This document shows, piece by piece, positions 16,846 to 54,886 of a stretch of 64,000 bases of DNA. The translations under genes were made by a program, and so were the position numbers. Below the pieces are notes generated by a model. That model was not told the DNA's origin. It was given only the letters and a program-made list of their open reading frames with translations, and ran no database searches. Numbering within the stretch: position 1 is the stretch's first letter; every line of letters starts with the position of its first letter. The stretch is from a virus (taxonomy: Duplodnaviria; Caudoviricetes): IMG/VR virus record IMGVR_UViG_3300024246_000001, positions 3,513 through 67,512 of that record; one strand, 5' to 3'.

Positions 16846-19800
16846 TGCCCCCACAACCCGGTGCCAACGATATCCCCCGCAACCACGTCCCCGGACGCGG
16901 CCCGCTGCCGGCGCCGGTCATGATCATAGGGGAAGCCCCGGGTAGGGCGGAGAACAGTACGCGCATGCCCTTTGTGGGCCAAGCCGGCCAAGAACTGGAG
17001 CGCTATGCCCGCACCGCCGGACTGGACCTCGCGAGCTGCTACATAACCAATCTCGCGAAATGGTGGCCGCCGGTGGATTTCCGCGGCAACCAGCTCCCGC
17101 CCACGCCCGAGGACATAGCGCGCGACGAGCCCGAGCTGCTGGGCGAACTCCTGATGTGCGAACCCCGCGTGATCGTGGCGGTGGGAGCACATGCGGCGCG
17201 CTACTTCCTGCCCAAGTTCAGCAATATGCGCACTGAGCATGGATTGCCGCAGCTCACTTGGATTGAGGTACTCGGCCGCGAGGTGCCGGTAATTGCGGTC
17301 CTGCACCCAGCGGCGGGCCTCCACTCAGGGCTGCAAGAGGAGATGGCACGTATCCAGTGGGACTTCCAACAGGTTGGCAAACTGGTGCGCGGCCAGCTCC
17401 CCCTCACGCGCGCCGACGAGTTCCCCGACCCGCAATACCGGCGCCTGTTCGATGATGGTCCTTGCGAATTTGCCTGCAATGAGATGAAAGGCTCCTGTGT
17501 TGAATGTGGCGGTGAGGCGGACTACGACCACACAGACCATATTTATATCCCGCAGGGTTGCACTTGTGAGCGTAGCGGCCCGGCTGTACTAAGGAACTTA
17601 CTCGCCGGCCGCACCGAAGTGGCGATCGACACCGAGGGCACGATCGAGGACCCGGAGTGCCTGACCCTGGCCGTCACGCCCGGCGAGGGGTGGATGGTCG
17701 AGGCTGGCCAGGTCGAGACCCTCGCCGCCTTGGACAGGCACATCAATGCGCCGCACGGGATATGCACCGTCATCCTGCACTACATGACGCACGACCTGCC
17801 AGTGATCGAGGCGCTGGGCGTACGCGTGGCCCACCGGCCGGCCGTGAACTCTGACGGGTCGCCTGCGTTCCGCGACACGATGAACGAGCTCCACCTCTTG
17901 GGCGGGATCGAGCCGAAGGGGCTCAAGGCGGCCGAGTGGCGCCTGTGCGCGATGGAGGCCGATTCGTTCGAGGACGTGGCTGGAGAAAGTGCGTACGAGA
18001 CCGCGCGCGACTACTTCGAGCACGCGTTCGGGATGGCCGCCTGCGAATTGTGTGTGGGAGTGGGCAAGACCAACAAGCCTTACAAGGTGGTCGATACGGC
18101 GTGCAAGGTGTGCGGCGGGTCGGGTAGGGTGGCAAGTGTCAAGGCATGTGATTGCAGAGTGGTGGACATCACCGACTATGAGGGCGTGACCGAGACCACC
18201 ACACTGCCGATTGACATGGCAAAGGCTGATTGCGGAACGTGTTTTGGGGTTGGTGAGTTGCCGACTGGGCGCACTAAGTATTGCAAGTGCGTGAAGACTT
18301 CGGACGCGTGCGAGATGCCCGAATGCGTGGACGGCCTCCTCATCCCGGCGCCGGCCAAGGAGCTGAACTTCGACGCCACGACCGGTGAGTTCCGGTGGAA
18401 GCAGCCACAGTCGATGGCCAAGTGGCTCAAGCGCCGCATCCTCGGCGTCGACCTGCTCGGCACTGATACTGAGGAACTTGGGGCGCAACTGCCCATCAAC
18501 GCGCCGGATGCCGAAGACGAGCAGGACACTGCCCCCCTCTTCAAGCTGCGCAAGGCGTGGCGCGACCTGCCGCCAGAGCGCCGGGCCTTGGTGGAGCGCG
18601 TGGCCGGCCACATGCCCCGCGTGGCCCTCCGGAACGTGAAGGACCAAGCCCGCGTCACGAGGTACGCCTGCCGCGACGCCGACGCCACCCTGCGCGTGTC
18701 CCGCGAGACTGACAGGCGCATCCGCGAGCATGGCCTGCAAGCCGCCCGCGAGATCGACATCGCCATCCTGCCCATGCTCTCGCGGATGGAGCGCAACGGT
18801 ATGATGATCGACCGCAGCCACTTTGAGGCGTTCCACAGTGACCTCCAGCGTTGGCTCAGCGAAGAGCGGGCCAAGCTGGCCGATCTGGTCGGCGAGCACA
18901 ACCCGAACTCCAAGCGCATAATTGGAGTCCTGTTCCGCGACCTCCAACTCCCGGCAATCAAGATGACTGCGGGTGGCCAAGAGAGCACCGACGACGAGAC
19001 GCTGGGCATCTTGAAGGCCCAGCTCAAGGCTCGGCAGATGGGCGGACAGGACAGTGAATTGGTGCACACCGGTGTGCAGGTGATTGACTGCATCCAGACA
19101 TACAGGGAGTTCCAGAAGATGGACTCCACATACGTGCTTGGCCTGCTCGGGAAAGCCGACGCGCACAATCGGGTCCACACGACCATCAATTACACTAAGT
19201 CAGTGTCGCGCCTGAGCAGCGAGGAGCCCAACCTCCAAAACATCCCTAACCCAGACAATTCACCCTACCCTGACGACGCGGTGCGCAACATGGGCCTGCG
19301 GATGCGCCGCGGGTTCGTCGCGCGACCGGGCTACAAGATCATCGAGGCGGACTACTCGGCGATCGAGATGGTGGTGGGCGCCCACCTCACGCAGGACCAC
19401 AACCTCATGCGGATCTTCCACGAGGGGCTCGACCCACACCGCTATGCTGCCAGTGAGTTCCTCAAGATGCCCATGGCCGACGTGCCCAAGCCAGTGCGCA
19501 CGCAGTTCAAGACTCTGAACTTCGCCTCCTTCTATGACACGTCCGCAATGACGATCCAGCGGCAACTCTCGCTCATGCAGCCCCCTATCGACATGTCTGT
19601 GGAGGAGTGCCAGCAGCTCATCAACTGGTATTTCAGCGAGTTCGCGCCCGACGTGCTCGCGTGGAAGGACCGCGTGCGCCGGGACGCCCAGGCCGAGGGC
19701 GTGGTGCGCACTATGTTCGGCCGCATGCGCTGGATGCCAGGCCTGCGCTCACAGATCAAGCGGGTGAGGTCGGCCGCCGAGCGCGAGTGCACCAACTTCC

Positions 19801-20060
19801 CCATCCAGGGCACCGCGCGCGACATCCTGTGCGTCGGCATGGCCCGCATGTGGGAGGACCTCTTCCCCACCTTGTGGGCTTGCGGGGTGGACGCCCAGCC
19901 CATCATGACCGTGCACGACGCGGTGGCGGTGGAGTGCCCAGCGGAGTTCGCCGAGTTCGTGGGGGATCAGATGCGCGAGGTCATGGAGCAGGCGGTCGGG
20001 CTCAGTGTGCCGGTCAAGGTGAGCGTAGGGATCGGGGACAATTGGGCGGAGGCCCATTGA
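16845..20060 (+). CDS. polA: family A DNA polymerase with N-terminal uracil-DNA glycosylase and 3'-5' exonuclease domains
   Basis: UDG GEAPG/PFVGxAG/HPA; ExoI IDTEG; ExoIII YACRDADAT; RLSSEEPNLQNIP; motif A ADYSAIE; motif B KTLNFASFY; motif C VHDA. Confidence 0.95.
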   Translation: MPPQPGANDIPRNHVPGRGPLPAPVMIIGEAPGRAENSTRMPFVGQAGQELERYARTAGLDLASCYITNLAKWWPPVDFRGNQLPPTPEDIARDEPELLGELLMCEPRVIVAVGAHAARYFLPKFSNMRTEHGLPQLTWIEVLGREVPVIAVLHPAAGLHSGLQEEMARIQWDFQQVGKLVRGQLPLTRADEFPDPQYRRLFDDGPCEFACNEMKGSCVECGGEADYDHTDHIYIPQGCTCERSGPAVLRNLLAGRTEVAIDTEGTIEDPECLTLAVTPGEGWMVEAGQVETLAALDRHINAPHGICTVILHYMTHDLPVIEALGVRVAHRPAVNSDGSPAFRDTMNELHLLGGIEPKGLKAAEWRLCAMEADSFEDVAGESAYETARDYFEHAFGMAACELCVGVGKTNKPYKVVDTACKVCGGSGRVASVKACDCRVVDITDYEGVTETTTLPIDMAKADCGTCFGVGELPTGRTKYCKCVKTSDACEMPECVDGLLIPAPAKELNFDATTGEFRWKQPQSMAKWLKRRILGVDLLGTDTEELGAQLPINAPDAEDEQDTAPLFKLRKAWRDLPPERRALVERVAGHMPRVALRNVKDQARVTRYACRDADATLRVSRETDRRIREHGLQAAREIDIAILPMLSRMERNGMMIDRSHFEAFHSDLQRWLSEERAKLADLVGEHNPNSKRIIGVLFRDLQLPAIKMTAGGQESTDDETLGILKAQLKARQMGGQDSELVHTGVQVIDCIQTYREFQKMDSTYVLGLLGKADAHNRVHTTINYTKSVSRLSSEEPNLQNIPNPDNSPYPDDAVRNMGLRMRRGFVARPGYKIIEADYSAIEMVVGAHLTQDHNLMRIFHEGLDPHRYAASEFLKMPMADVPKPVRTQFKTLNFASFYDTSAMTIQRQLSLMQPPIDMSVEECQQLINWYFSEFAPDVLAWKDRVRRDAQAEGVVRTMFGRMRWMPGLRSQIKRVRSAAERECTNFPIQGTARDILCVGMARMWEDLFPTLWACGVDAQPIMTVHDAVAVECPAEFAEFVGDQMREVMEQAVGLSVPVKVSVGIGDNWAEAH

Positions 20061-20080
20061 CATCCGCCGCAAAATAGTTG

Positions 20081-20109
20081 TTGACTCTGGGGCAAGATTG
20101 ACCTACATT
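20081..20109 (+). promoter_or_regulatory. sigma70-type promoter (TTGACT-N4-GGCAA class)
   Basis: TTGACT-17-TACATT. Confidence 0.65.
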
Positions 20110-20240
20110 CCACTTGTGAACTTGGCCGGTATCCTTGATGAGCGCGCCCTTAGGATCGTCGAGGCTGTGAAAGTCAGCTTGAAGAGGGGGTCGGACCCTA
20201 ACCAGCCAAGCTCACGTTTTGTTTGAGGAGGGTCAATCAA

Positions 20241-20480
20241 GTGTGGCAAGTTCGTACCAGAGGTCACCACGAAACAGAGAGTTGGGCCAACGCCCCGGCC
20301 AATTGCTACTGGGACATGGGCCACCTCGTGATCCCGCAGCCCGGCAAGCCCCCAATCCGCTACTCCGGCGGGGATGTACGCTGGTACACACCCAAGCGCT
20401 CGGAGGAATTCGCAACCCTGATACCGCCCGCGGCCCATAAGCGCCTGCGCGCAACCTACGAGAAGGAGCACAATGTCTAA
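20241..20480 (+). CDS. hypothetical protein
   Basis: RBS GAGGAGG plus GTG. Confidence 0.55.
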   Translation: MWQVRTRGHHETESWANAPANCYWDMGHLVIPQPGKPPIRYSGGDVRWYTPKRSEEFATLIPPAAHKRLRATYEKEHNV

Positions 20481-21021
20481 TCTTGCTGCTGATCCTGCTG
20501 CTACCGACTCCGCCGCCGTCCCCTTCGAGTCCGTCCCTGCCCTCGCTGCCAACGACGCCTATATCGAAAAGATGACGCGCCTGCGCGACCTCAAAGCGCT
20601 CAAGGACCAACTCTTTAACGACAAGGAGCCCAAGTCACCCGGCGATCTGCCGCTCGGCGAGTACGAGGGCTTGAAGCGTGAGTGCGCCGCCATGCAGCTC
20701 ATCAACGGCCAGAAGTCGGTGGCGTTCTTCGATCTGCGCGTGATGAGCGCGGCGGGCGGGGTGACGAAGGGGAAGGTGACCGGCGCCGGAATAATCGATT
20801 CACTGGGTGATGCCACACCGCAGCAGTTGCGAGCTATCGCTCTGGCCGCCAAAGAGTGTGATCCGGAGGTGTTGGTTAGCAACGGCATCTCCGCTTCGGT
20901 GGTAGTCGCCGCCCGCACGCCCGACAAGCCCCGCGCAGGCAGCGTCCGCGTGGAGTGGATCGGCGCCAAGGGCCGGGGCGCTGGCCAGAAGACGCGTGGC
21001 ACTGGCGGGGACGTGCAGTGA
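20473..21021 (+). CDS. hypothetical protein
   Basis: RBS AAGGAG; high GC3. Confidence 0.7.
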   Translation: MSNLAADPAATDSAAVPFESVPALAANDAYIEKMTRLRDLKALKDQLFNDKEPKSPGDLPLGEYEGLKRECAAMQLINGQKSVAFFDLRVMSAAGGVTKGKVTGAGIIDSLGDATPQQLRAIALAAKECDPEVLVSNGISASVVVAARTPDKPRAGSVRVEWIGAKGRGAGQKTRGTGGDVQ

Positions 21022-21224
21022 TGCCAAGCGAGTCGCGCTGCGCCCGCTGCAACACGTCCTGCGAGCCCGAGGACCTCGACGAGTGCTTGGGGTGCAAGTC
21101 GTCAGACCTGTGCCCGGCGTGCATGACCGGCCCGACCAAACACGACTGCACTACCCGAGCTTTTCAGCGGGGTGGTGCGGCCAAGATACTACGCAACCTT
21201 GTGGATGGAGGAGCTATCGCATGA
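21021..21224 (+). CDS. small Cys-rich protein
   Basis: CARC, CLGC, CPAC; TGATG coupling. Confidence 0.55.
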   Translation: MPSESRCARCNTSCEPEDLDECLGCKSSDLCPACMTGPTKHDCTTRAFQRGGAAKILRNLVDGGAIA

Positions 21225-21667
21225 GCGTGATCCCGGCAACCTCACAACCCCGCAACCCCTCCTTCCACCACACCCCGCCCAAGCCGACCCGCTCCCGCGG
21301 CAAATCCTATACGCCCGGCATGTTCGACAAGTTGATCGACCACCCTGTACTCCAGCCAGACCACGCCCCGCCGGAACAGGTGTGCGGGGTGCACGTGGAG
21401 CTCGCAGCATCCGGCCGCAGCGTGATCGTGGCCGAGCAGCTCAAGGGAGGCGTATGCGGGCCGCGGCACCTCCTCACGCTGGAGGAGCCACATTCGGTGT
21501 TCATGCGCCTGGCGGACGGGCGGGAGGTATGGGTCGAGATACGAGCCGTCGAGCCGACGCCAGAGGAGGACAGGGAACCGTGGTCGGATGGGCCAGTAAC
21601 CATGGTTACTGCGGAATCCTTGCCGCCGCAGTCCTCGTTCGTGTGCGTGGAGTTCCTGCCACGCTGA
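21221..21667 (+). CDS. hypothetical protein
   Basis: RBS GGAGGAG; ATGA coupling. Confidence 0.55.
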   Translation: MSVIPATSQPRNPSFHHTPPKPTRSRGKSYTPGMFDKLIDHPVLQPDHAPPEQVCGVHVELAASGRSVIVAEQLKGGVCGPRHLLTLEEPHSVFMRLADGREVWVEIRAVEPTPEEDREPWSDGPVTMVTAESLPPQSSFVCVEFLPR

Positions 21668-21987
21668 TGGCCCGGCAACCCAAGCTACTCGCGCGCGTCC
21701 AGTTCGCCCTCGCGCACGTCTGCTGGCCCCACTGGTGCCAGCGCCACCGCATCCCATACGTGAGCGATTTCTGCCCTGAGTGCAATGGTGCTCGGCTGGC
21801 CCGCCTTGAGGTTGTCGACGGCCGGAACTCAGCCCAGGCCCGCGACATGCCGAGCGAGGAGGCGGCGCTCATCGGACTGGACCGGCTGCTGGCGTTCGAC
21901 ATCGAGGAGGTCCGCAGATACGTGCGCGGCCGGCGGCGGAATGGGCTGCACCGGGCGATGGCGGACGGGGAGATCGGCGGGCGATGA
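21667..21987 (+). CDS. hypothetical protein (Zn-binding motif)
   Basis: CQRH...CPEC; TGATG coupling. Confidence 0.55.
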   Translation: MARQPKLLARVQFALAHVCWPHWCQRHRIPYVSDFCPECNGARLARLEVVDGRNSAQARDMPSEEAALIGLDRLLAFDIEEVRRYVRGRRRNGLHRAMADGEIGGR

Positions 21988-22184
21988 TGGAGAGAGCAAA
22001 GTGCCCCTATTGTGGTCGCATTTTGGCCGTGCAGCCTCCCAAGGGTGGTGACGGATCGGTTGATGTGTTTCCGCGCCACGCAAAGAGTCCACTGCGGCGC
22101 AACAGGGCAGATATCTCGTCCCATGGCATCAGGTGTGAAGGTGGTCGGCAATTGGTGGAATACTCCGATTATGTGAGTGGCTAA
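21984..22184 (+). CDS. small Zn-ribbon protein
   Basis: CPYCG...RH...C. Confidence 0.5.
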   Translation: MMERAKCPYCGRILAVQPPKGGDGSVDVFPRHAKSPLRRNRADISSHGIRCEGGRQLVEYSDYVSG

Positions 22185-22335
22185 GCTGGGCCGGCCGTCT
22201 GCCTACAAGCACGCCCTGAGAACCATCCACACCCACCCACGCTCCACCCGCCACCCCTCGCGAGTTCTCAGCAGCGCACGCACGCCCACCCTTCCCCAAC
22301 GGCCAGCCCTGCGGCGCCCAGCATAGCACGCCTGT

Positions 22336-22491
22336 TCAGGTCGGGATCTTCATGAGGATGAAGCTAAGCACGAAGAACGCCAGACCGTAGCACACGAGCC
22401 TGGAATGCCACGGGTGGGGCTGTGGCACGGCCGAACCGGCGACGATGAACAGGACGATCGAGATTATCTGGGCTACGAGGCTGAGAGTCAT
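22336..22491 (-). CDS. 51-aa two-TM membrane protein, holin candidate (absent from the ORF track)
   Basis: RBS AAGGAGA; MTLSLVAQIISIVLFIVAGSAVPQPHPWHSRLVCYGLAFFVLSFILMKIPT. Confidence 0.6.
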   Translation of the reverse strand: MTLSLVAQIISIVLFIVAGSAVPQPHPWHSRLVCYGLAFFVLSFILMKIPT

Positions 22492-22536
22492 GGAAGGTGG
22501 TCTCCTTTTTTGAATGAATGTGGCTTCGGTGCCACG

Positions 22537-22692
22537 TCAGTAGCTATCCGGCATGGACGTTCGGAAGGTCAGAATCTCCTCCGCCTCGACTGGCCGTTTG
22601 TCGGCCTTCACGCTACCATCCGGACGGATCTCAATCTCGTACCCTTGCTCCATCAGCTCTCCAAGTTCGTCGATCGATGGATGCGCGCTCAT
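22537..22692 (-). CDS. hypothetical protein
   Basis: ATGA coupling to the upstream gene. Confidence 0.45.
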   Translation of the reverse strand: MSAHPSIDELGELMEQGYEIEIRPDGSVKADKRPVEAEEILTFRTSMPDSY

Positions 22693-22883
22693 GCTGCCCA
22701 CCCGCGAGGAAGCCAGCCGTTCAGTTGCCATCCGGACTGTCTCGAAAACCAGATGGAGCGGCAACACCGCGTGCAGCCATACATCGGAATCCATTGCCCG
22801 TCTTCAGGGCGCCGGACGCTGATGCCGTCGAGCGGACCACTCACCGCATGACCGAAGATTCGGCACCACAACGCTTTGAACAT
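22689..22883 (-). CDS. hypothetical protein
   Basis: MFKALWCRIFGH...CTRC, a small-phage-protein pattern. Confidence 0.5.
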   Translation of the reverse strand: MFKALWCRIFGHAVSGPLDGISVRRPEDGQWIPMYGCTRCCRSIWFSRQSGWQLNGWLPRGWAA

Positions 22884-22913
22884 GCCGCGAAGTTTACCAC
22901 CTTCGGTGCCGCG

Positions 22914-23315
22914 TCAGTGCTTCTCCGGCACAGTCAGGATGTGCTCCGACTCCTCGGCCGTACGATCTCCTGGAGCGATCTTCGCTACCCGGCGCGTTTC
23001 GGCATCGTCCGCCATCCCGCCGAGCTTCATGGCGTTGGCAGTCCTCACTTCCTCGTGAACCACCTTCACATCATCGGCAATCGATTCCAAGCGCTCGGAG
23101 GTCTGGCCGTGCTCTACATGGCTTTCAATGCGCTTCTCATCGACCCGTTGGCGCGTCTTCCAACCCTGCCACGCGGCCGTAGCCGGGCCGATCGCGATGC
23201 CGAGGAAACCAAGGACGGCCAGGGTGATGTGCTCGACGGGCGCGGCCCACCACGGAGCGACGGGCGACGCGGCCACGATCGCGAGGAAGGTGATCGATTG
23301 AAGGAGGAGGATCAT
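22914..23315 (-). CDS. membrane protein (lysis-region candidate)
   Basis: Two N-terminal hydrophobic segments plus hydrophilic tail. Confidence 0.6.
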   Translation of the reverse strand: MILLLQSITFLAIVAASPVAPWWAAPVEHITLAVLGFLGIAIGPATAAWQGWKTRQRVDEKRIESHVEHGQTSERLESIADDVKVVHEEVRTANAMKLGGMADDAETRRVAKIAPGDRTAEESEHILTVPEKH

Positions 23316-23639
23316 CTACGCGGGCATCTTCCCGGCGGCGAGGTCGTCGATGGCGGACCAGATGTCGGCGGTCCATTTGTTCATCAGGTCGGCGCGGCCG
23401 ACTACCTCGTCACCTTGTGGAGGATTGCGCAACCATTGAGCGAGTAGCTTGCCCTGCTCGCAGCCCTTGAAGCCGTCGAGATCTGGTACGATGCCCATCC
23501 AACTCACGATCTCGGCATAGGCTTTCGCTGCTACGGCGAGCGCAGAGGCTTCCGGTCCTTCGATGAGTGGCGCGAGGGCGGCGATAAAGCCGCCGTTGTT
23601 GAGGATCTTCTTCACGGATGGATCGAGCGGTCCTGGCAT
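23316..23639 (-). CDS. hypothetical protein
   Basis: RBS GGAGG; tightly packed with neighbours. Confidence 0.6.
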   Translation of the reverse strand: MPGPLDPSVKKILNNGGFIAALAPLIEGPEASALAVAAKAYAEIVSWMGIVPDLDGFKGCEQGKLLAQWLRNPPQGDEVVGRADLMNKWTADIWSAIDDLAAGKMPA

Positions 23640-23640
23640 G

Positions 23641-24069
23641 TCATTGGCCTCCTAACTTTGGTGGGTCTGGAATAGCGGGGGCCGGAATCCCCCGCATCTT
23701 CAATGTGGTGGCCATCTCGACGACAGCACCATGCATGTTGAAATTATATGCGTTCTGATCGCGCAGGCTTGCTCTGGTCTGACTTTGCTCCTCGGTCAGG
23801 TGCCGGATATCGCTCCCCTGCGAAGTGAACGAGTTGGATGTCGTGAGGGTCAGGTTGGCGATGTTGTTGTTCACCGACTTGATCTCCTCAAGCATCCTAC
23901 TGGCGATCCAGATAGTAGCCGTAAGCAGAAGGCCGCAGACGGTCAGCATGAGCCCGAATAGCGTCATCCATGTTCGCGGATCAGACCATGCGCTCGGCTT
24001 GGCTCGCTCGCTTGAAACATACTGCCCCTCCGGATCACCTTCCCTGCGGTGCTGATGCGGTTCAGCCAT
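23641..24069 (-). CDS. single-TM coiled-coil protein (holin/antiholin candidate)
   Basis: TM WMTLFGLMLTVCGLLLTATIWIA followed by heptad-like region. Confidence 0.6.
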   Translation of the reverse strand: MAEPHQHRREGDPEGQYVSSERAKPSAWSDPRTWMTLFGLMLTVCGLLLTATIWIASRMLEEIKSVNNNIANLTLTTSNSFTSQGSDIRHLTEEQSQTRASLRDQNAYNFNMHGAVVEMATTLKMRGIPAPAIPDPPKLGGQ

Positions 24070-24105
24070 TCAGCGTACCCTCCCGGTGACATAGTGCCAT
24101 AGAAA

Positions 24106-28676: not shown

Positions 28677-28679
28677 CTG

Positions 28680-29363
28680 TTAACCTCCGCCACCGGTGCC
28701 GCCAGCACCACCACTTGCGGGCTTGCCGTTGCCACCACCACCGTTGTTATTCTTGTACTCTTGCCACGCGTTGAAGAGGGCTTGGGCCATCTGCTGTTGC
28801 GCCGCGGATTGATCGCCGGCGGCAGTGCGGCCCATGTTGAAGGCTGATTGGTCGAGGGTGCCAGCGCCTAGTCCAGCGTTGGTGGACCCACCGGCGGCCC
28901 CAGAGCCGATGTTCGCGGCTTGCCCAGCCATCGCCGACAAGGCCGGGTAAGCACTCGCGCGTTCTGTGTCGATGACCCGCTGACCCTCGTCGGCGGCGCG
29001 GAACCCCAAGTCCGTGTTATATGCAGCCCCGGCCCCAGAGCGCGGGGCGAGGTTGCGCGACGCTGTGATGAGTGAGCCATACCGCGAGTTGATGTCAGCT
29101 AGTTGCGGGGCCACCGCGCCCATGATCTGGGAGCGGTCCCCACTCGCGAGCGCCCGGTAGTGCTCGAACGCCGGGTCGAAGGCCTCACCTGCGCGCTGGT
29201 AGTACTGGCCGATGTACGGGCTCAGCGTCTTCATGTTGGCCAGTTGCTGGTTGGCCAAGTCGGTCTGTGAGCGGATGAGGGGCTGCTGCTTTTTGGACGC
29301 CGAGCGGCTGCCCATGTAATTGAGCACTGCCCCGCCAGCGACGGCTACGGCGACCCAGCTCAC
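28680..29363 (-). CDS. small ejection (DNA transfer) protein, P22 gp7-like
   Basis: MSWVAVAVAGGAVL..GS.SASK start; Gly/Ala/Gln-rich. Confidence 0.7.
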   Translation of the reverse strand: MSWVAVAVAGGAVLNYMGSRSASKKQQPLIRSQTDLANQQLANMKTLSPYIGQYYQRAGEAFDPAFEHYRALASGDRSQIMGAVAPQLADINSRYGSLITASRNLAPRSGAGAAYNTDLGFRAADEGQRVIDTERASAYPALSAMAGQAANIGSGAAGGSTNAGLGAGTLDQSAFNMGRTAAGDQSAAQQQMAQALFNAWQEYKNNNGGGGNGKPASGGAGGTGGGG

Positions 29364-30323: not shown

Positions 30324-30341
30324 TCTATCATCCTCGTGATC

Positions 30342-37177: not shown

Positions 37178-37189
37178 TTGAGCCTCCTT

Positions 37190-40919: not shown

Positions 40920-40976
40920 AGTGCTGCCCTCCCCTTCACACCCACCCACACACAAAACGTCGCGGTGCGGCGGGCT

Positions 40977-41915: not shown

Positions 41916-42013
41916 CGTCAGAAGCTCCTTTTGCATGCTGAGCGCTGGCCGGCTACCAATCGCACTGGTCCGGGGCGGGCGCTCGTTGCGGTAAGGTACA
42001 TGCGGTTAAGATA

Positions 42014-42083
42014 CAACACTTTTTGTCACCGGTTGACACTTTTCGTCACTGACACTTTTTGTCACTATTGACATTTATTGTCA
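42014..42083. promoter_or_regulatory. four TGACA-N5-TGTCA operator-like boxes
   Basis: 42014-28, 42034-48, 42050-64, 42069-83, upstream of scaffold/MCP. Confidence 0.7.
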
Positions 42084-42500: not shown

Positions 42501-42523
42501 GTCCGTCTCCTATTACTTGCGGC

Positions 42524-44467: not shown

Positions 44468-44477
44468 AGGCAATTTG

Positions 44478-46724: not shown

Positions 46725-47137
46725 TATAGTGGTCCGTAGTGGATCTGGAAGATGTCACCGGTCTTGCCGGATATGGCGGTCGTGCGGAAGTCATACAGTC
46801 CCACCCCACCACTGCCAGGAAAATCTACATATAGACCCGGCAACAGGATGCTGCCGTGCGCCGTGGCAATCACATTGGAGGTCTTGAAATTGGCCGCTAT
46901 GTCGGTAGACTCAAAGCCTATGCGGGCCGGGTTGTGCGTGGCGTCCCCGGCGTTGTTGCCGCCTTCGGCGTGGACGCGCAGCCACAGGTGCCGGGAACGT
47001 AGCTTGCGCGCGTCATGCGAAGATGGGTTGACATCATCCGCGTCAAGGATCTGCGGTATAGCGGTGCCGAGTGTGGCAAGATAGGTGATCGACTTCGGCA
47101 CGTAGTCGGCGTCGAGGACAACAGTGAGCGTACGCAT
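46724..47137 (-). CDS. hypothetical virion protein
   Basis: RBS AAGGAG; TAATG coupling to the fibre gene. Confidence 0.6.
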   Translation of the reverse strand: MRTLTVVLDADYVPKSITYLATLGTAIPQILDADDVNPSSHDARKLRSRHLWLRVHAEGGNNAGDATHNPARIGFESTDIAANFKTSNVIATAHGSILLPGLYVDFPGSGGVGLYDFRTTAISGKTGDIFQIHYGPL

Positions 47138-47151
47138 GATGGGGGTTCTCC

Positions 47152-49266
47152 TTATGACTCGGCTACTGCCCCGGAGGGCGTGAAAGATGGTGGGGCCTGT
47201 GCTGTGGGCGGGTGTCCTGCTGTCGAAGCAAGGATGCCCAGACCGAGGATCTTCTCGGCCTGCAAGCGCGAGGTGATGTCGGTGGCCCACGAGGGCGGCT
47301 TGCCCACGTTCGGGACGCCCCACACTTCGAGCAGGGTCCAGTGGTCGATGAGGCCCATGCGTGCGCCTTGCAGGTAGAACATGCGTTTTGATGTGGTGGC
47401 CACGTCAAGGAGGGTGCCCTCGGCCACGTCGAAATTGAAGTATTGGAGGAACTGCTTGTTGCGCACGTGTTCGGGGTCCGGGCCGCGCTCCCACGCCTCG
47501 GGCTTGAGCCGATGCACACGCTTAGTGCGTGGTGACTTATGCACAATTGGGTTGCCATAGGCATCAGCAAGCCCTGTCTGTATCTCGTCATACTCGCCCG
47601 TAGGCGAATCGAAGCTCTCGTAGTCCTCGTCCTTGATGAAGTCCGGCATGAGGTCGCCCGACTTGTAGTCCCAGTCTTCCCAAGTCATGCCGTCCGCACC
47701 GAGGAGCCTGAGCCGCAATTCGAGTGGGTAGAACTGCATGAACATGCTGGCGAGCATCATGGCGAACTCGCGGATGAACACTTCGAGGGATCGCGAGCGG
47801 GCGCGCACCAGAGGCGTCATGGCTTGGATGAGTTGCTCGATGGTGTCGCCCGAGGGCATCTGGTTGAGTTCGGCCAGGCCGCGCAGATTCGCGACGCCGG
47901 AGAGCTCGTCCATCGAGTCGAGCAGGAACTTGAGGTGCTCGGGGATCGCGGCGTCGAGCGGGGGCTCAGGGACGATCTGGAACGCCTTGCCGGGCTCCAG
48001 CCCGGGGTTGACACCCAATTGCATGCCGGACAAGCGTGTGTTGAACCCCTTGGCCAAATTGGGGCTGATGGCCTTCTTGTCGTAGATGAAGTTGCGCTTG
48101 GCCGCCCGGCGGATGTGGTCCTGGATCGCGCGCAAGTTCTCGTCGACATCCCGCTGCAAACTGAGCAGCGGGTGGATTGGGGATGTCCCCCACCTTGCCC
48201 AGGCCCAGGTGTCAAGGGTAACCTTGCACACCGGGAGCATACCGTGGTGGAAGTGGCCCGGGCCGTCCTCCAGGATGCCGTAGCGGGTGGCCACGATGCG
48301 CCGGCCGAATGGATAGAGCCGCTTGCCGGGCTCCGCGAGGTAACTCCACGGCGAGGCTGGGATGCGCTGGCCCGGCTCATCCGGGTCGTCCGCCCATGGA
48401 CCCATCTCCTTGGCCACCTTCGACTCGTTCACGCTGAAATCATGTAGGTAGACTGTGAACTCGTCGGTCACCGGGATCTTACCGCCGATGGCCTGTGCTG
48501 GCGCCCCGCCGAAGAGGGCCGCGTTCGGGGCGCCTTCCGACATGAGGGCCTCCTCGGCCTCGCGCAGCCGGCGCGCGCTCGGGGACTCCTTCTCATACCC
48601 ATACCTGTCGATCTTGAGGTTCTTGACCGCGTCCTTGCCGTACACGCGCTCGAAGTAGTCGATCGGCCGCTCCCGGCGCACCCACGCCCCGCGGGCGTTC
48701 TGCACGCTGCGCTTGTCCCCGCCTTGGAAGCGGATCATGCCGCAGTCGCGCGGGTCCTCGGCCACCGCGTCGATGTCGCCCTGCGTGGTGATGCCAGTGT
48801 CGAGGTCACGCGGCCCCAAGGCGTCAGGGTTGTAGAACATGTGGATGTAGCCGGTGCCTGCCACGAGCACGTAATCTATGGAGTCGCGGAACACCTGGTC
48901 GATCCCGCGCCGCAGGAACCACGATTTGGAGAGCTTGCCGAAGATGTCGGCTTGGCGCTGGTAGCGGTCGGCGTTCGTCGAGTAGGTCCAGAAGGGCTTG
49001 ATGTCGGTGAGGAGGGCACGGAGTTCGAGGGCGATGGTCTGGAGCTTGTTGAACCGGCCGCGCGAGAGCTTCGGGGAGCGGATGCGTGGCTCGTCGATGC
49101 CCATGATGGCGTCGATGGACTCGCCGATGTGGTCGTAGGAGTGCTCGGCCTTGTTGGCGGACACGCCCTCCTGGATGGCGTGGCCGATCCAGTCCATGAC
49201 CTCCTGCTCGTGTTCGGCAAGGCCCGGATTACTTGGAGCTACTGACCGCGGATTACGTCTTGCCAC
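47152..49266 (-). CDS. portal protein (P22-like)
   Basis: 704 aa after the terminase; D..VAGTGY.H..Y, RR.VAT.YGIL.DGP..F.HG..P, D.LSGV..L.G motifs. Confidence 0.8.
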   Translation of the reverse strand: MARRNPRSVAPSNPGLAEHEQEVMDWIGHAIQEGVSANKAEHSYDHIGESIDAIMGIDEPRIRSPKLSRGRFNKLQTIALELRALLTDIKPFWTYSTNADRYQRQADIFGKLSKSWFLRRGIDQVFRDSIDYVLVAGTGYIHMFYNPDALGPRDLDTGITTQGDIDAVAEDPRDCGMIRFQGGDKRSVQNARGAWVRRERPIDYFERVYGKDAVKNLKIDRYGYEKESPSARRLREAEEALMSEGAPNAALFGGAPAQAIGGKIPVTDEFTVYLHDFSVNESKVAKEMGPWADDPDEPGQRIPASPWSYLAEPGKRLYPFGRRIVATRYGILEDGPGHFHHGMLPVCKVTLDTWAWARWGTSPIHPLLSLQRDVDENLRAIQDHIRRAAKRNFIYDKKAISPNLAKGFNTRLSGMQLGVNPGLEPGKAFQIVPEPPLDAAIPEHLKFLLDSMDELSGVANLRGLAELNQMPSGDTIEQLIQAMTPLVRARSRSLEVFIREFAMMLASMFMQFYPLELRLRLLGADGMTWEDWDYKSGDLMPDFIKDEDYESFDSPTGEYDEIQTGLADAYGNPIVHKSPRTKRVHRLKPEAWERGPDPEHVRNKQFLQYFNFDVAEGTLLDVATTSKRMFYLQGARMGLIDHWTLLEVWGVPNVGKPPSWATDITSRLQAEKILGLGILASTAGHPPTAQAPPSFTPSGAVAES

Positions 49267-49296
49267 CCACCACCCACCCTCCCAGCAAATTGTGTG

Positions 49297-49860
49297 CTAC
49301 GTGTCCTTGGTCATGTCGTCCGAGTACTCGGCCCGCTCACGTGCTTGGCGGGTCGGCTCGTCGAAGTGGCCCATCTCATTATACGCCATGTTGCCGGTCT
49401 GGGCTGAGCGCACCGCCTCAAGCCGGTCAAGCTGGGCGAGGTTGGAGGCCTCGACCACCATGTAGCCTGCCCGCTTGTACCGCTCGGGCATGGGGGCGCC
49501 ACGGTAGCCCGGCGGGGCCACGCGAGTGCCATCCGGGCTGAGCCAGGCGTAGAAGCGTTCGGCTTCGGGAATCTGGGCGAACTCGCGGAAGGTGGAGGTG
49601 GTCGGGTCGGTGAGGGGGTCACCGATGAGCGGGCAACCTTCCTGTGGGCACTTCGGCACGGGGAGCCATTTGTGGTCCGGTGGCCCATCAGGTCGGACCT
49701 CTTTACCGTGAACATAATCATATTGGCGATTGGTGCGATAGAACTCTTCATACTCTTCACTGCTGGCCTTGCGCACAGACCTACACGCGGCACGGAACTC
49801 ATGTCCGGCCGGGCACCGGAATTGGCGGAACTGGATGCGCGTGCGGGCGGCGTCAGCCAC
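49297..49860 (-). CDS. Zn-ribbon (FmdB-like) protein
   Basis: F.CPAGHEF...CPQEGC; position between terminase and portal. Confidence 0.55.
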   Translation of the reverse strand: MADAARTRIQFRQFRCPAGHEFRAACRSVRKASSEEYEEFYRTNRQYDYVHGKEVRPDGPPDHKWLPVPKCPQEGCPLIGDPLTDPTTSTFREFAQIPEAERFYAWLSPDGTRVAPPGYRGAPMPERYKRAGYMVVEASNLAQLDRLEAVRSAQTGNMAYNEMGHFDEPTRQARERAEYSDDMTKDT

Positions 49861-50113
49861 ACCGCCTCCGCATCTCTTTCCACGCTCCGTACGGCCCGAG
49901 ATAGAGCGCACCCTCTGGCGACTCCCAAATGGTTGCGCTCTTTCGATGTGTCTTCCACCCCGCCGCAGCCAATTCGCGCTTCCACAGTTCTACGTTCTGA
50001 TAAAGACGATCACCGGCAGCGTTCACTAATTGGTGGAGTGCGTCCTTCGTCTCGGCGTTCATATTCGGGTAGTCGGAACGGTAGGCTGTGAATGCATAGC
50101 GTGGTGGCGTCAT
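49853..50113 (-). CDS. hypothetical protein
   Basis: TAATG coupling. Confidence 0.5.
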   Translation of the reverse strand: MTPPRYAFTAYRSDYPNMNAETKDALHQLVNAAGDRLYQNVELWKRELAAAGWKTHRKSATIWESPEGALYLGPYGAWKEMRRRCG

Positions 50114-50283
50114 TAGTAGAACACCTCGAATTTGGCGCCCTTGCGTTCATAATAACCAATCACCACGCTGCTTGGCTTACCCAGTGTCCACTTAGCTATT
50201 GGTGGTGCCTGCACCACTACACCACGTTCACACCAAATGCCGGAGGTGGCATAGGCCAGCGAAATCCAGTACCCATAATTCAT
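50113..50283 (-). CDS. hypothetical protein
   Basis: ATGA and TAATG coupling. Confidence 0.5.
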   Translation of the reverse strand: MNYGYWISLAYATSGIWCERGVVVQAPPIAKWTLGKPSSVVIGYYERKGAKFEVFY

Positions 50284-50693
50284 GCCCGGAACTTCTCCGA
50301 CACCGCATCCGCGATCATCTGCGGGGCCACTTCCTCGACCGGCTTGCACAGCGATTTTGCCGCCCACGCGATCTGCTCCAGCACCGCCGGGCGCAGCTCG
50401 ACGCGATGGCCACCGACGTGCAGGCTCACGAGGCGCCGCAGCATGTCGAGGAGCTTGGCTTGGCCGTCCACGCGACCACCGAGCAGGCGGCGGATTTCGG
50501 CATCGCCCGCCTTGTCGATCATATAGGCCATCTCGCCAAGCACGAGCCCCACACCGATGGCACCCACAACTACTTCTTCAAGGTTGGCGCCGGCACCCTC
50601 CAGTTCCACCAACTGCTTATAAAGCTGTGCTGGGATAGTCAGACGCATTGTGACAGACGGTTCGACTGTGGCAACGGGTACGGTGTTTGACAT
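50280..50693 (-). CDS. RHH-like hypothetical protein
   Basis: RBS GAGGAGG; MRLTIPAQLYKQL. Confidence 0.6.
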   Translation of the reverse strand: MSNTVPVATVEPSVTMRLTIPAQLYKQLVELEGAGANLEEVVVGAIGVGLVLGEMAYMIDKAGDAEIRRLLGGRVDGQAKLLDMLRRLVSLHVGGHRVELRPAVLEQIAWAAKSLCKPVEEVAPQMIADAVSEKFRA

Positions 50694-50710
50694 GGTGACA
50701 GTATACCTCC

Positions 50711-53266
50711 TCAGAATAGCCCCTCATCCGCCGGGTCGTCGTCCCCGCCCAGCCTCGCGTACGGATTGATGGAGTCCAGTTCAATCTCCTCGGCGCTCGC
50801 GTGGGTGGCCTGGCACTCCGGCGAGCAGTCCTCGAAGTGGCCGAACTGCAAGTCCTGGTCCTCATACATGCGCCCGACCACCTCATTCCACACGGCGTGC
50901 TGGGCCTCGGCGGTCACCCCTTGCCCAGCCAACTCCTTGTTGAACATAGCGCCCATGCGCCCCGGCAGCTCACGCAAGAGGCCCTCGGCGGGCGTCTCAG
51001 CCAGGTCGTCACCGTCGCGAACGGGGAAGAGCACCCACCCGGCGAGGAAGGCTGTGATCATGCGATCGTCATGCTGGCCTGCGTTCGGCGGGACGTAGAA
51101 CCGCTCATAAGTTTTAAGCGCGGCCGAGGTCTCGGTCTGCACGCCCACCGTCTTGACCACCGCGTCGCCCAGCTCTTTGATGAGGAACTTGCTGCGGGGC
51201 TCCATGTCGCGGCGCACCAGCAGCAATCTCCCGCGTGAGTGGAGGATAGGCACGGTGCTCGGGTGCTCGTTGAACCCGATCTGCGGTAAAGTCTTGATAG
51301 CGATGCCGTCCTGCACCGCCTCGGTCTGCCACAGGTTGGTGTAGCCACGGTTCTGGAGGGTGCGCACGGTGAGCATGCCGACCGAGATGCGGTTGATGAT
51401 CAGCTCACACTCATCCAAGTCCGAGGCCCCGCGGTAGATCCGCCCCAAGATGAAGGGGATCACCGCGATCTCCTCGGCGTCCATCGGCGCGGCGAAGTCC
51501 ACCACCTGCACGGCCCGCCCGCCAACCCGCCCTCGCCCGTCGCACGCAGAGCACTCAAGTTGGACGCCCTTCTGCTCAGTGGGGAGCCAGCCCAGACCGT
51601 GGCACGGGTCGCACTGGCCACGCGGCTGCTCCTTGCGCCAGACCTGCACCGCACCATTGTCGATTTTGATGTCGTTGTGCGTGCGGGCCTGCCGGGTCCA
51701 TTTCGGGATGCCGCCGCTCCCCGGTGGGTCGCACGCCTGCACGTAGGTCGCGCGCGTGTCGGGCTGCTCGAACACCCACACAATCCCGCGTGGGTCCTTG
51801 AGGGCGTCGTCGAGTTCCCCTTCGTGCATAGGGCCTAGGTGGTAGCCGACCACGTGGTGGATCGGCGACCGCTTGGCGTCGGCGTACTGCTCCACTTCCG
51901 GGAGCTCGTCCTCGGTCATGAGCCGGTAGGGGATAGGCACGTACGCGGTCGAGTTGAGCTGCATGCGGTCGATGGTCTCATTGGTGAATGCGCCGGCAGC
52001 CGAGTGCTGGAAGGCGTCTATGGGCTCGATCGGGTAGGACTGTTTGAAGATGTTGAGCTTGCCCTTGCGGAAGGCTTGCTGGCGTGTGACCTCGTACCAA
52101 TACATGACCTCCTTGTCGAGGCGGACCTTGGAGTGGTCGGGCATGTAGAGGTGGGAGGTATCATAGACGCGTTCGGCGGCAAGCACCGTATCCGGGCGCG
52201 GCTCCCAACCAATTGGCACTTCCATGCGGCACTTGGAGCGTTGGCCACGAGCGGCCTGGTAGGCGTCGATGAGGTAGAAGGGGGCGAAATTGTAGTCGAA
52301 CCGGCCCGCGCCACCCTCTGCGGTCCCAGACATGACGTTTGTACAGAACTCGTACCAGTAGCCAGATTTCCCCTTTGCGGTGGACTCCATCCCGAAAAGG
52401 GTGCGGCGGTCGAATGGCACGGCCGGGAATAGGCCCTCGTCGAAGTGGTCGTAGGCCCGGTCTGGCGCGACAACGCTGATCTCGGTGCCGTGGAAACCCA
52501 CCCACGTCTCGCCCTTCCCTAAATCCTTCTGTTGGCGGAAGTCCTGCAATTGAATCATGGAGTCGTTGACGAACTCGCTGCCCCCGTCGATGGTCTTGCG
52601 CTTGATCTTCGCGCGCATCCATATGGGCATCTTCTCCCACATGCGCTCCGAACGCCGCTGGAGGGACTGAGTGGACTGGGCGTCGATCGATGCTATAAGG
52701 GCCGGGAAGTAGGAGTAGAAGTTGACGCGGTGGCGGATGAAGGACTGCCACGCCGTCGAAGCTCCTAAATGGCGCGCCTTCAATAATATGAGTAGAATTC
52801 CATTGACCGGAACCTTGCGCTTGGCCTGATCGTGCGCGATGTCCTCCAAGCGGGCCATCTTGAGCAGGAGGGCCTCCTGCATACCGTTGAGGATGAACTT
52901 GCCGAGCGGACCTTTGTTGTCGCCGGTGTGGCCGTCCTCTAGGATGTCCCAGCCCTCGGGCCTATCGGATAAGCTGTGAAGTTGGATTAGGCAAAAATTC
53001 TCCGCCCAGTGGCGCCAATCCAATTGACACAGGATCATCTCATTGTCGATGAACCGTTGCTCGACCGCCGTCAGCTCGCGCGACCACTCGAACGACCCGT
53101 CCTCCTTGATAGTGCGCTTGTCCACCAGCTTGTCAAGGTGGGCCACCATGTCGTCGATCTCGGGCGGGTCGAAGCGGATGATGCGGAACTTGGGGTCGTT
53201 GCGGCGGACGCGCTCGGCGTCGACCACCTTGGAGATGTTCGCTTCGATAATGGCCGGGGAGTACAT
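50711..53266 (-). CDS. terL: terminase large subunit
   Basis: LKARHLGAST Walker A; FHGTE; MESTAKG; RNase H-like nuclease ACDP...HDDRMITAFLA. Confidence 0.9.
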   Translation of the reverse strand: MYSPAIIEANISKVVDAERVRRNDPKFRIIRFDPPEIDDMVAHLDKLVDKRTIKEDGSFEWSRELTAVEQRFIDNEMILCQLDWRHWAENFCLIQLHSLSDRPEGWDILEDGHTGDNKGPLGKFILNGMQEALLLKMARLEDIAHDQAKRKVPVNGILLILLKARHLGASTAWQSFIRHRVNFYSYFPALIASIDAQSTQSLQRRSERMWEKMPIWMRAKIKRKTIDGGSEFVNDSMIQLQDFRQQKDLGKGETWVGFHGTEISVVAPDRAYDHFDEGLFPAVPFDRRTLFGMESTAKGKSGYWYEFCTNVMSGTAEGGAGRFDYNFAPFYLIDAYQAARGQRSKCRMEVPIGWEPRPDTVLAAERVYDTSHLYMPDHSKVRLDKEVMYWYEVTRQQAFRKGKLNIFKQSYPIEPIDAFQHSAAGAFTNETIDRMQLNSTAYVPIPYRLMTEDELPEVEQYADAKRSPIHHVVGYHLGPMHEGELDDALKDPRGIVWVFEQPDTRATYVQACDPPGSGGIPKWTRQARTHNDIKIDNGAVQVWRKEQPRGQCDPCHGLGWLPTEQKGVQLECSACDGRGRVGGRAVQVVDFAAPMDAEEIAVIPFILGRIYRGASDLDECELIINRISVGMLTVRTLQNRGYTNLWQTEAVQDGIAIKTLPQIGFNEHPSTVPILHSRGRLLLVRRDMEPRSKFLIKELGDAVVKTVGVQTETSAALKTYERFYVPPNAGQHDDRMITAFLAGWVLFPVRDGDDLAETPAEGLLRELPGRMGAMFNKELAGQGVTAEAQHAVWNEVVGRMYEDQDLQFGHFEDCSPECQATHASAEEIELDSINPYARLGGDDDPADEGLF

Positions 53267-53532
53267 TACAGACCGGAGTCCACTTCTCCGTCCATGCGCT
53301 TATTCATACGATGAACAAACCGAACCCCAGCAGTCAACAGTTCAAAATACTTGCCATCGAATGGTGCCTCGTATTGGTGGTTATCTGCCAATAAAATGGC
53401 CAAACCTTGGAACTGCTCGCCAGCCTCCAGACGGGCCAGCACCTCGCGCACGATCTTGAGTTTGGGTTCATCCAACTCCACCAACTTGCGGATCGGAACT
53501 ACCGTGCTCGGGTCTGCGGCGTTGGTGGTCAT
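53266..53532 (-). CDS. hypothetical protein
   Basis: TAATG coupling to terL. Confidence 0.55.
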   Translation of the reverse strand: MTTNAADPSTVVPIRKLVELDEPKLKIVREVLARLEAGEQFQGLAILLADNHQYEAPFDGKYFELLTAGVRFVHRMNKRMDGEVDSGL

Positions 53533-53951
53533 AGGCCCGCCTTGCGCGTGCCCACAATGCCGTCGCCCGCATGCGGGTTGGCCGGTTCGGCGGGCTTGGG
53601 TGGCTCTGGCGGTTTGACCAGTTCGGATTGGTCGGCGGCGAGCGCCTCCTCGTCGACCGTGGCCAGCTTGCGGTCGGGAGGAGTGAGGCCGAACCGGCGG
53701 TAGGCGGCGTCCGGGACCTTGGTGCCGCGCTGTTCGAGGATCTCCATCATCGCGAGGGTCTCTTCGAGGGGCTCGGCGGCGTGGGCGTCGGCCTCCGAAT
53801 TGAGGCGGTCCAACTCCTCAAGCTCGGCGTCGGTCAGCTCCACAGGGATAGGGCACAGGCGCTCGAACGCGTCGGCGATGCGCGTGAGTAGAGCCAATGC
53901 CTCGCGCGTGCGTTCAGTTACCCACTGCCACTCACCATCACTCAAACTCAT
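53529..53951 (-). CDS. hypothetical acidic protein
   Basis: RBS AAGGAG; ATGA coupling. Confidence 0.6.
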   Translation of the reverse strand: MSLSDGEWQWVTERTREALALLTRIADAFERLCPIPVELTDAELEELDRLNSEADAHAAEPLEETLAMMEILEQRGTKVPDAAYRRFGLTPPDRKLATVDEEALAADQSELVKPPEPPKPAEPANPHAGDGIVGTRKAGL

Positions 53952-53960
53952 GTGATCTCC

Positions 53961-54161
53961 TTATAGCTCCCCAAAATTATAGTCTGGTGGTGGCGGGCAC
54001 GGGTGCCTGTCGAGCCCACTCTTATACAGGAATTGGAACCCGCAGCGCGGGCACTGGTTAGATAGTCGCTCAACCTCGCCGATGAGTTGCTCAACATGTA
54101 TTGAGGTGATCCGCCCAGAGGCGAGCAGTTCGCGCAAGAGTCTAGTGTTCAAGCGGCTCAT
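53961..54161 (-). CDS. small C2H2-like zinc-finger protein
   Basis: CPRCGFQFLYKSGLDRH.C. Confidence 0.5.
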   Translation of the reverse strand: MSRLNTRLLRELLASGRITSIHVEQLIGEVERLSNQCPRCGFQFLYKSGLDRHPCPPPPDYNFGEL

Positions 54162-54886
54162 TGGTCGATCAACTTCTGCACGCGCACGTTGATGGGCTCA
54201 CCGCCACCACCTGCGTTTTCTTGCTTGGCGCTTGCCGCTGCGTTGGCGCTGACGATGATGTCCCGCACACCGCCGGAAGCATGGCCGGCGCTGCCTTTGC
54301 CACCCATGGCCCCGCCGTGGAGGCCCACGAACATCTCGATGTATTTGGGGTCGGCGAACACTCGCACCTCGCCAGAACCATGGCAATACCAGCACTCGGG
54401 TGCAGGTTCGCCGTCCTCGCCCGGCAAGTAGCCCTCACCCTCGCATTTGGTGCAATCCACGATGCGCGGCTCAGCAGCTTCCCCGAGCCCGTCGATCACG
54501 CGTTCCAGCCGGGTGCCGGACTTCGCGATGGCCATGCCCAAATTGCGCGCGCCTACCAGAGCGAGTAGTTCTGGGAGCTTGACCCCGAACTTGGCCATCA
54601 CCGTGTCGACCGGGTAGCGGATGCGGCCGGTCTGGCGATCGGGCAGGCTGGAGGTGGATGGATCGAGCATGAAATCATACATGAGCCGGAATTTGGACGG
54701 CGCGATGGGGCGACCCTGCTCGTCCTCGGCCGGCTCGGCGGCGATGGCGAATTCGAGGGCCTCGATGATGGTCGGTAGGCCGATGTGCTGTTCGAGGAGG
54801 GCGCGGGAAGCCTTGCGCGCAAAGTAGGGCGTGGCGACGGGCGCCGGCTGGAGCTCGGCGGAATCTGGCGGTTGGTCGGCGCTCAT
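54158..54886 (-). CDS. putative terminase small subunit with CxxCxGxG finger
   Basis: Helical, Gly-rich C-terminal tail; upstream of terL; CTKCEGEG...CWYCHGSG. Confidence 0.55.
   Translation of the reverse strand: MSADQPPDSAELQPAPVATPYFARKASRALLEQHIGLPTIIEALEFAIAAEPAEDEQGRPIAPSKFRLMYDFMLDPSTSSLPDRQTGRIRYPVDTVMAKFGVKLPELLALVGARNLGMAIAKSGTRLERVIDGLGEAAEPRIVDCTKCEGEGYLPGEDGEPAPECWYCHGSGEVRVFADPKYIEMFVGLHGGAMGGKGSAGHASGGVRDIIVSANAAASAKQENAGGGGEPINVRVQKLIDQ

Follow-up and report, generated by a model that had tools for sequence, protein, structure and literature searches.

In a 64,000-nucleotide window (G+C content about 62%) of the genome of a soil phage (Caudoviricetes; IMG/VR record IMGVR_UViG_3300024246_000001), the cysteine motif CxxCxGxG recurs in three proteins: a DNA polymerase (PolA), the large terminase (TerL), and a protein encoded upstream of TerL. 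The window covers bases 3513-67512 of the record, which is complete at 67,512 bp and has direct terminal repeats. We favor the interpretation, with a probability of roughly 0.6, that these proteins carry three separate four-cysteine (Cys4) knuckle or ribbon modules of different ages, and not one shared device. The modules are best read as zinc-stapled surface protrusions that were gained independently. The observations behind this reading concern the presence of the sequences, the boundaries of the insertions, their phylogenetic distribution, their conservation, and their composition. A first-pass annotation of the same DNA had proposed that DnaJ-type zinc fingers of shared origin were inserted into all three proteins, perhaps to work with a chaperonin (GroES/GroEL) of the phage. 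The insertions into PolA and TerL and the recurrence of such insertions in PolA survive our analysis, whereas the insertion into a small terminase (TerS), membership in the DnaJ family, the GroEL link, and a common origin do not.

The three genes together hold seven CxxCxGxG motifs, and each of those quoted in the first-pass annotation was found in the translations where it had been placed. Within-protein shuffling of the 60 predicted proteins (16,511 residues; 2000 shuffles) produced a mean of only 0.025 motifs, which excludes a chance origin. A six-frame scan returned the same seven motifs in three long open reading frames (ORFs), along with two matches elsewhere. Furthermore, PolA, TerL, and the upstream protein each hold one knuckle pair with an exact start-to-start spacing of 20 residues.

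Clear evidence for different ages comes from the complete related phage G001. This phage possesses both the PolA module and the upstream-protein ribbon, and it lacks both the TerL hairpin and GroEL. This pattern indicates that the modules differ in their time of origin and do not require a phage chaperonin.

The module that appears to be ancestral to its protein family resides in the gene upstream of TerL, for which we assign the following features:

54158-54895, minus strand: conserved zinc-ribbon protein upstream of TerL, 245 amino acids (aa) as called in public data (from synteny and the family profile)
54371-54454, minus strand: predicted zinc ribbon of this protein, two CxxCxGxG motifs 20 residues apart (from the family alignment)

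Homologues are found upstream of TerL in L004, L005, L006, and G001, and all of them retain the four cysteines. The family is large, with 921 members recovered at E <= 1e-3 in a profile search of 1.84 billion cluster representatives. When 40 diverse family members (14-46% identity) are aligned, the four cysteines are the only invariant columns, suggesting that the ribbon is the ancestral core of the family and not an insertion. As a result, the earlier description of this protein as a TerS with an inserted finger loses its insertion. As for the TerS assignment itself, neither the protein nor any of the 40 relatives has a Pfam or PHROGs match to TerS, and a language-model look-up yielded weak leads only (Sf6_terminase, 0.83; T5_Terminase_small, 0.82). 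By our own joint estimate, a TerS function is the leading candidate at somewhat below even odds, followed by a late regulator and by some other function, which we hold to be equally probable.

The upstream protein also shows a resemblance to the zinc-ribbon arm of the lambda antiterminator Q. Searched against the PDB, the family profile matches this arm (7ubj and 4mo1) with E values of 2e-5 to 4e-5, and an hhalign comparison with a 7-member Q profile gives 92.8% (E 3.9e-7). Likewise, 10 of the 40 family members match phrog_127, which is annotated as ‘anti-termination protein Q-like’. Lambda Q (PDB 4MO1, 7UBJ-7UBN) is a small helical DNA-binding phage protein with two CXXCXGXG motifs and one zinc, an arrangement like that predicted for the upstream protein. 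In contrast, the knuckles are 26 residues apart in lambda Q and 20 in the upstream protein, and only the latter has a helical segment preceding the ribbon. The match is confined to about 40 ribbon columns, such that removal of the arm or hairpin lowers the probability to 0.1-0.5%, and only two of the 40 relatives reach E 0.001 to PF03589. Because the match does not extend beyond the zinc ribbon and the body of the protein is unmatched, we rejected as unproven the possibility that the upstream protein is a lambda Q antiterminator (PF03589).

The surroundings of the gene were also scanned for promoters and terminators, and no Q-type late promoter-terminator unit was found adjoining it. The gene shares four bases with the beginning of the one that follows, which leaves no room directly downstream for a late promoter. 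Three promoter-like sites are present further upstream, at 57646-58231 on the minus strand. As a separate observation, the gap from which the late block and the rightward genes diverge (57646-58425) holds a tandem of three TTGACA-type sites on the minus strand, with two more on the plus strand; the region has six promoter-like sites where 2.7 are expected.

A more complex history is evident for PolA, whose gene includes the following features:

16845-20060, plus strand: 1071-aa fusion of uracil-DNA glycosylase (UDG) with a 3'-5' exonuclease and a family A DNA polymerase (from Pfam and structure alignment)
17457-17573, plus strand: linker insert of 39 aa (aa 205-243), Cys/His-rich, between the UDG and exonuclease domains (predicted local distance difference test score, pLDDT, below 50)
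18042-18140, plus strand: first half of the core module, knuckles C400/C403 and C420/C423 (pLDDT 81-92)
18141-18269, plus strand: nested recent insert (aa 433-475), a CxC pair and the third CxxCxGxG (pLDDT 30-41)
18270-18344, plus strand: second half of the core module, CxC 480/482 and C489/C494 followed by a conserved DG (pLDDT 85-89)

The identity of the enzyme is well supported. Pfam assigns DNA_pol_A (PF00476) at 279.5 bits and UDG at 82.2 bits, and the AlphaFold model (pLDDT 84.1) superimposes on the Klenow fragment with a Z score of 38.7 and a root-mean-square deviation (rmsd) of 2.5 over 568 residues, and on T7 polymerase with Z scores of 31-33. The exonuclease residues D262/E264, H312/D317 (ExoII), and Y607/D611 (ExoIII) are conserved, and so the protein has both the domain of a family A polymerase and the Exo I, II, and III motifs of a 3'-5' exonuclease. 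Its cysteines occur as CxxCxGxG motifs beginning at C400 (nucleotide 18042), C420, and C463, as CxC pairs at 435 and 480, and as the pair C489/C494.

We aligned 24 PolA homologues, including that of the window. Among the 23 relatives, an eight-cysteine core located between ExoII and ExoIII is conserved in 18 closer ones, P0048 carries a single-site version of it, and four more distant UDG-PolA proteins are without it. The PolA of G001, which is 31% identical to that of the window, has the same core module. The second half of the core is marked by the conserved columns C.C ... C....C.DGL, present in 19 sequences. These alignments support the view that the PolA core is a true insertion relative to the more distant homologues. 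The core had been described previously as a single insertion of about 100 aa; an insertion is indeed present, but it comprises an older core of about 60 aa and a nested piece of about 43 aa.

This nested piece (aa 433-475) is found only in the window and in P0030, which is 94% identical, and it is missing from relatives at 89-90% identity. The linker insert (aa 205-243), which the first-pass annotation did not list, occurs in none of the 23 aligned relatives, one of which is 94% identical, and two distant relatives have different Cys-rich inserts at this same linker site. The two young pieces also differ from the rest of the gene in G+C content at third codon positions (GC3), which is 0.83 gene-wide. 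The corresponding values are 0.51 for the linker insert (quantile 0.004 of in-frame windows) and 0.63 for the nested insert (quantile 0.041), whereas the old core has ordinary values. A tblastn search of phage records with the PolA module gave no match, and a phmmer search of PDB sequences with this module and with the linker insert found none at E <= 10. We also observed that the G001 PolA (L012/L014), encoded by a 1113-codon frame, has an Arg/Ser/Gly-rich stretch of about 130 aa inserted midway through the glycosylase fold, which apparently interrupts the UDG domain.

Insertion of such knuckles into phage polymerases has a published precedent. In marine podoviruses of the HMO-2011 type, the polymerase was reported to have two CXXCXGXG motifs in a ‘partial DnaJ central domain’ (PMC9038755, PMC6918029), a feature conserved across the group in seven new isolates and 207 metagenomic genomes (PMC9038755). 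In the HMO-2011 record itself (NC_021864), gp12 is annotated with PF00684. The first-pass statement that these enzymes normally lack the motif is therefore overstated for PolA, and the PolA case is a variant of the published phage-polymerase knuckle insertion. Both are phage family A polymerases with a 3'-5' exonuclease and an inserted CXXCXGXG pair. However, the HMO-2011 module is in the polymerase domain, about 90 residues past ExoIII and after an NxNSPxQ motif, whereas the alignment places the window module between ExoII and ExoIII, and so the window PolA lacks a CXXCXGXG pair at the polymerase position that distinguishes the HMO-2011 type. The HMO-2011 pair comprises four cysteines, in contrast to eight in modules of the window type (12 in the window itself), and only the window enzyme has an N-terminal UDG domain. 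Moreover, the HMO-2011 genome has no CxxCxGxG in TerL or any other gene. A further variation is seen in the phage G002, whose PolA has a single knuckle just before the NxNSPxQ motif. Taken together, these three placements suggest that knuckle insertion into phage PolA is recurrent and convergent in position. The earlier proposal of a recurrent insertion thus holds for phage family A polymerases, in which at least three sites are used in different lineages.

The third module is located in the nuclease domain of TerL, to which the following features belong:

50711-53266, minus strand: TerL, ATPase and RNase H-like nuclease, 851 aa (from Foldseek, structure alignment, and a structure model)
51530-51613, minus strand: predicted zinc hairpin of TerL (aa 552-579), two CxxCxGxG motifs at C552 and C572
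50801-50839, minus strand: second candidate metal site in the C-terminal tail, H810/C814/C818/H822 (from the alignment)

The model of TerL (pLDDT 82.9) has the ATPase and RNase H-like nuclease domains of a large terminase, with invariant residues D513 and D733/D734. Foldseek matches the protein to T4 gp17 (E 8e-19), and structure alignment pairs its ATPase with that of T4 gp17 (Z 23.5) and its nuclease with that of RB49 gp17 (Z 21.9, rmsd 2.1, 184-188 residues aligned). Its best cultured-phage matches are two phages of Tunturiibacter (Acidobacteria) at 25% identity. A search of the PDB with the TerL profile returned nothing but chance nanobody matches, scans of viral contigs with single TerL proteins gave no match, and a scan of genome contigs found no relative.

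In the model, the hairpin (pLDDT 65-91) forms the turn between nuclease strands 538-551 and 585-593. Among 25 aligned homologues, all 23 relatives at 44% identity or above carry it, and the two distant homologues exhibit a clean 36-column gap at this site, between two strands of the sheet. The hairpin is likewise absent from the G001 TerL (27% identical). The alignment supports a true insertion relative to more distant homologues, as the first-pass annotation had proposed for this nuclease. Residues C552, C555, C572, and C575 are at least 90% conserved, and conservation extends to W560, P562, T563, E571, R578, G579, and G583, suggesting that the hairpin presents a used surface and is not a mere staple. 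Within the limited set of literature that was searched, no description of a zinc hairpin in a TerL nuclease domain was found, and this is apparently the first report of one in a large terminase.

The tail of TerL holds the pattern H-x3-C-x3-C-x3-H (aa 810-822), followed by an acidic stretch with an aromatic last residue. H810, C814, and C818 are at least 90% conserved. The 23 close relatives keep the site, which the distant ones lack; its pLDDT is below 50.

The first-pass annotation had noted no intein signatures, and our search for splicing and homing-endonuclease domains in the window PolA and TerL agrees, with no family found at E <= 0.1. Some relatives do have inteins elsewhere in the gene, namely P0018 and P0024 in TerL and P0031 in PolA. 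The intein family is PF14890 in P0018 and P0031, and the latter also has a LAGLIDADG domain.

All three modules share the CxxCxGxG knuckle with the DnaJ cysteine-rich domain (PF00684; PDB 1EXK), which has four repeats and two interleaved zinc centers. TerL and the upstream protein have only two repeats each, and the PolA core combines two canonical repeats with CxC and C-x2-4-C pairs. The window proteins also differ from DnaJ in lacking its J domain and C-terminal domain and in being enzymes or a DNA-binding protein. Pfam scores for DnaJ_CXXCXGXG are 18.9-19 bits for the upstream protein and 14.1 bits for TerL, compared with a gathering cut-off of 32.7 bits, and PolA has no PF00684 match at E <= 0.1. 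Anti-TRAP (PDB 2BX9) has a similar two-knuckle, one-zinc arrangement. Its Pfam family (PF15777) scores 16-16.6 bits, again below the cut-off (32 bits), and its best E value among the 40 upstream-family members (1.1e-7) is confined to the knuckles. Since all of these scores are sub-threshold, the likeness is at the level of the motif only. Furthermore, no J domain with an HPD motif is present among the Pfam matches of the three proteins. The label ‘DnaJ-type’ is therefore apt for the motif and not for the proteins.

Several points weigh against three independent, zinc-stapled modules. Within the genome, the TerL and upstream-protein hairpins match each other best (E 7e-5), and column shuffles equal the score of their non-motif residues in only 2.2% of cases, a value that is uncorrected for three tests and for sequence relatedness. 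This resemblance beyond the motif makes a common origin of those two hairpins possible. In addition, the recent PolA inserts, given the low pLDDT of their models, may be disordered or merely tolerated. The window PolA module is net acidic (-2) because of its nested insert, which weakens a DNA-binding reading for that module. Zinc binding is itself predicted from the motif, and the GroEL comparison drew on the complete phages G001 and G002, leaving out the close clade that has the TerL hairpin. One could imagine that all three hairpins descend from a single insertable cassette, which passed from gene to gene within this lineage (from the upstream protein to TerL, for instance) to serve as a matched handle in which the acidic upstream arm and the basic TerL hairpin would touch each other or a common partner. 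We find this scenario, including the proposed contact, quite unlikely. It would account for the 20-residue spacing of all three pairs, for a G-aromatic-x-P segment common to the TerL and upstream-protein hairpins, for their reciprocal match, for the proximity of the two genes (about 1 kb apart), and for their opposite net charges. However, the modules exhibit no likeness at the DNA level (43-54% nucleotide identity, no blastn match), and neither DNA-level copies elsewhere in the genome nor convincing flanking repeats were found. PolA and the upstream protein are dissimilar beyond the motif (33% of shuffles reach the score), G001 reveals modules of different ages, and the G-aromatic-x-P segment of the upstream protein is limited to close relatives, being absent from L006 and G001. 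The mean net charges of the modules (TerL +1.4, PolA +2.8, upstream protein -2.6) are unlike and argue against one common function. What is left of the shared origin once proposed is at most a weak hint, limited to the TerL and upstream-protein hairpins. A related scenario, wherein the lineage is actively gaining in-frame Cys-rich zinc-knuckle cassettes and the TerL hairpin was copied from the neighboring upstream-protein ribbon, seems to us more doubtful still; it derives from the two PolA gains within less than 10% protein divergence, their foreign-looking codons, and the reuse of the linker site elsewhere.

Alternatively, the modules could be neutral passengers, tolerated in frame at permissive surface loops without a function of their own; this reading applies chiefly to the two recent PolA inserts. 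Low model confidence, atypical codon composition, the absence of these inserts from presumably functional relatives at 89-94% identity, and the unrelated Cys-rich inserts at the linker site in two other relatives are all in keeping with this idea. We nevertheless consider it unlikely, because the older modules are strongly constrained over long divergence: the cysteines and several other residues of the TerL hairpin are kept down to 44% identity, the PolA core to 31%, and the cysteines of the upstream protein to 14%. Least probable of all, in our judgment, is that these are built-in DnaJ-like chaperone or thiol-redox elements that cooperate with phage GroES/GroEL in folding or regulating the replication and packaging machines. 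The phage does encode the chaperonin:

14747-16480, plus strand: phage GroEL, considered here for co-occurrence (phrog_5725, E 3e-134; Pfam Cpn60_TCP1, 200.7 bits)

The DnaJ motif and the weak Pfam and PDB matches, including 1exk at E 1.4e-6 for the upstream-family profile, could also be cited in its favor. However, these Pfam scores remain under the curated cut-offs, and the PolA module is unmatched in both databases. GroEL was not found in the related complete phages G001 and G002, and G001 thus keeps two of the three modules without it, contrary to the earlier notion that they work together. Moreover, the DnaJ cysteine-rich domain partners with Hsp70 (DnaK) and not with GroEL.

If the three modules are indeed separate, as we prefer, then each would have a distinct history. 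In the upstream protein, the ribbon would be the ancestral core of a large family that combines a helical (helix-turn-helix-like) segment with a zinc ribbon. In PolA, an eight-cysteine module with two probable zinc sites, set within an accessory segment of about 230 aa between ExoII and ExoIII, would predate the split from G001, and the lineage of the window would later have gained two Cys-rich pieces. In TerL, a 36-residue, single-site hairpin may have taken the place of a short beta-turn between two nuclease strands when one clade arose from its ancestor. Such modules are most likely self-folding, zinc-stapled protrusions that need no hydrophobic core, and for this reason they would be tolerated at surface turns. 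Each protrusion could then become a rigid platform from which conserved surface residues are offered to DNA or to partner proteins. We infer surface exposure and a contact function for all three. A mildly basic character is typical of the PolA and TerL modules, and an acidic one of the upstream-protein arm.

Precedents for such contact surfaces exist among phage proteins. The thumb of T7 DNA polymerase carries a thioredoxin-binding insertion with a known partner. This insertion likewise represents a lineage-specific contact surface added to a phage family A polymerase, a likeness in manner of working and not in membership, since it is located in a different subdomain from the PolA module and lacks both cysteines and zinc. 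Among solved structures the closest module is the lambda Q arm, whose zinc ribbon touches both DNA and the zinc-binding domain of RNA polymerase (PMC9388147), and by analogy it offers a precedent for a contact function of the modules described here.

Other small cysteine-rich elements were encountered in the same genome. Between TerL and the upstream zinc-ribbon protein is an ORF of 66 aa (53961-54161, minus strand) with a C-x2-C ... H-x-C pattern, and L006 has a small His/Cys-rich ORF at the matching position (1994-2266); small candidate metal sites are unusually frequent in the packaging module. According to public protein clusters, identical TerL and upstream-protein sequences also occur on a 226,588-bp contig. 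This contig is far longer than the phage and could represent a prophage, concatemer, or chimeric assembly. Of the two additional six-frame matches, one belongs to a 34-codon frame. The other falls in a possible gene for 104 aa (2377-2691, minus strand), situated in the gap between two plus-strand genes, whose product would combine a lone C-x2-C-C-G-S-G-H knuckle with an XRE-like helix-turn-helix after it. This could be a fourth CxxCxGxG protein, perhaps a repressor, and G001 has a similar knuckle-plus-helix-turn-helix frame at about 32368 on the plus strand. Finally, a 235-aa protein of the replication module (10853-11560, plus strand), which has no PHROG match, contains eight cysteines within about 45 residues (C-x4-C, C-x2-C, C-x3-C, C-x2-C), a cluster that is not of the CxxCxGxG type.

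A single genome displays three stages of module history, from a core as ancient as its protein family, through an insertion shared by one clade, to pieces added very recently. With these findings, the published case of HMO-2011-type polymerases gains a second insertion site, and the nuclease domain of a large terminase is added to it, apparently as a first. If the lineage were in fact gaining cassettes, this would suggest that phage replication and packaging enzymes are being remodeled by a small ‘zinc-knuckle’ module, either mobile or driven by recombination. The practical value of the TerL hairpin is modest until zinc binding and a phenotype are shown for it, but if it touches DNA or a partner, it would provide a natural handle on how the nuclease is positioned or restrained during packaging. 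More generally, hairpins that need no hydrophobic core may offer fast-evolving viruses an easy route to rigid contact surfaces on their essential enzymes.

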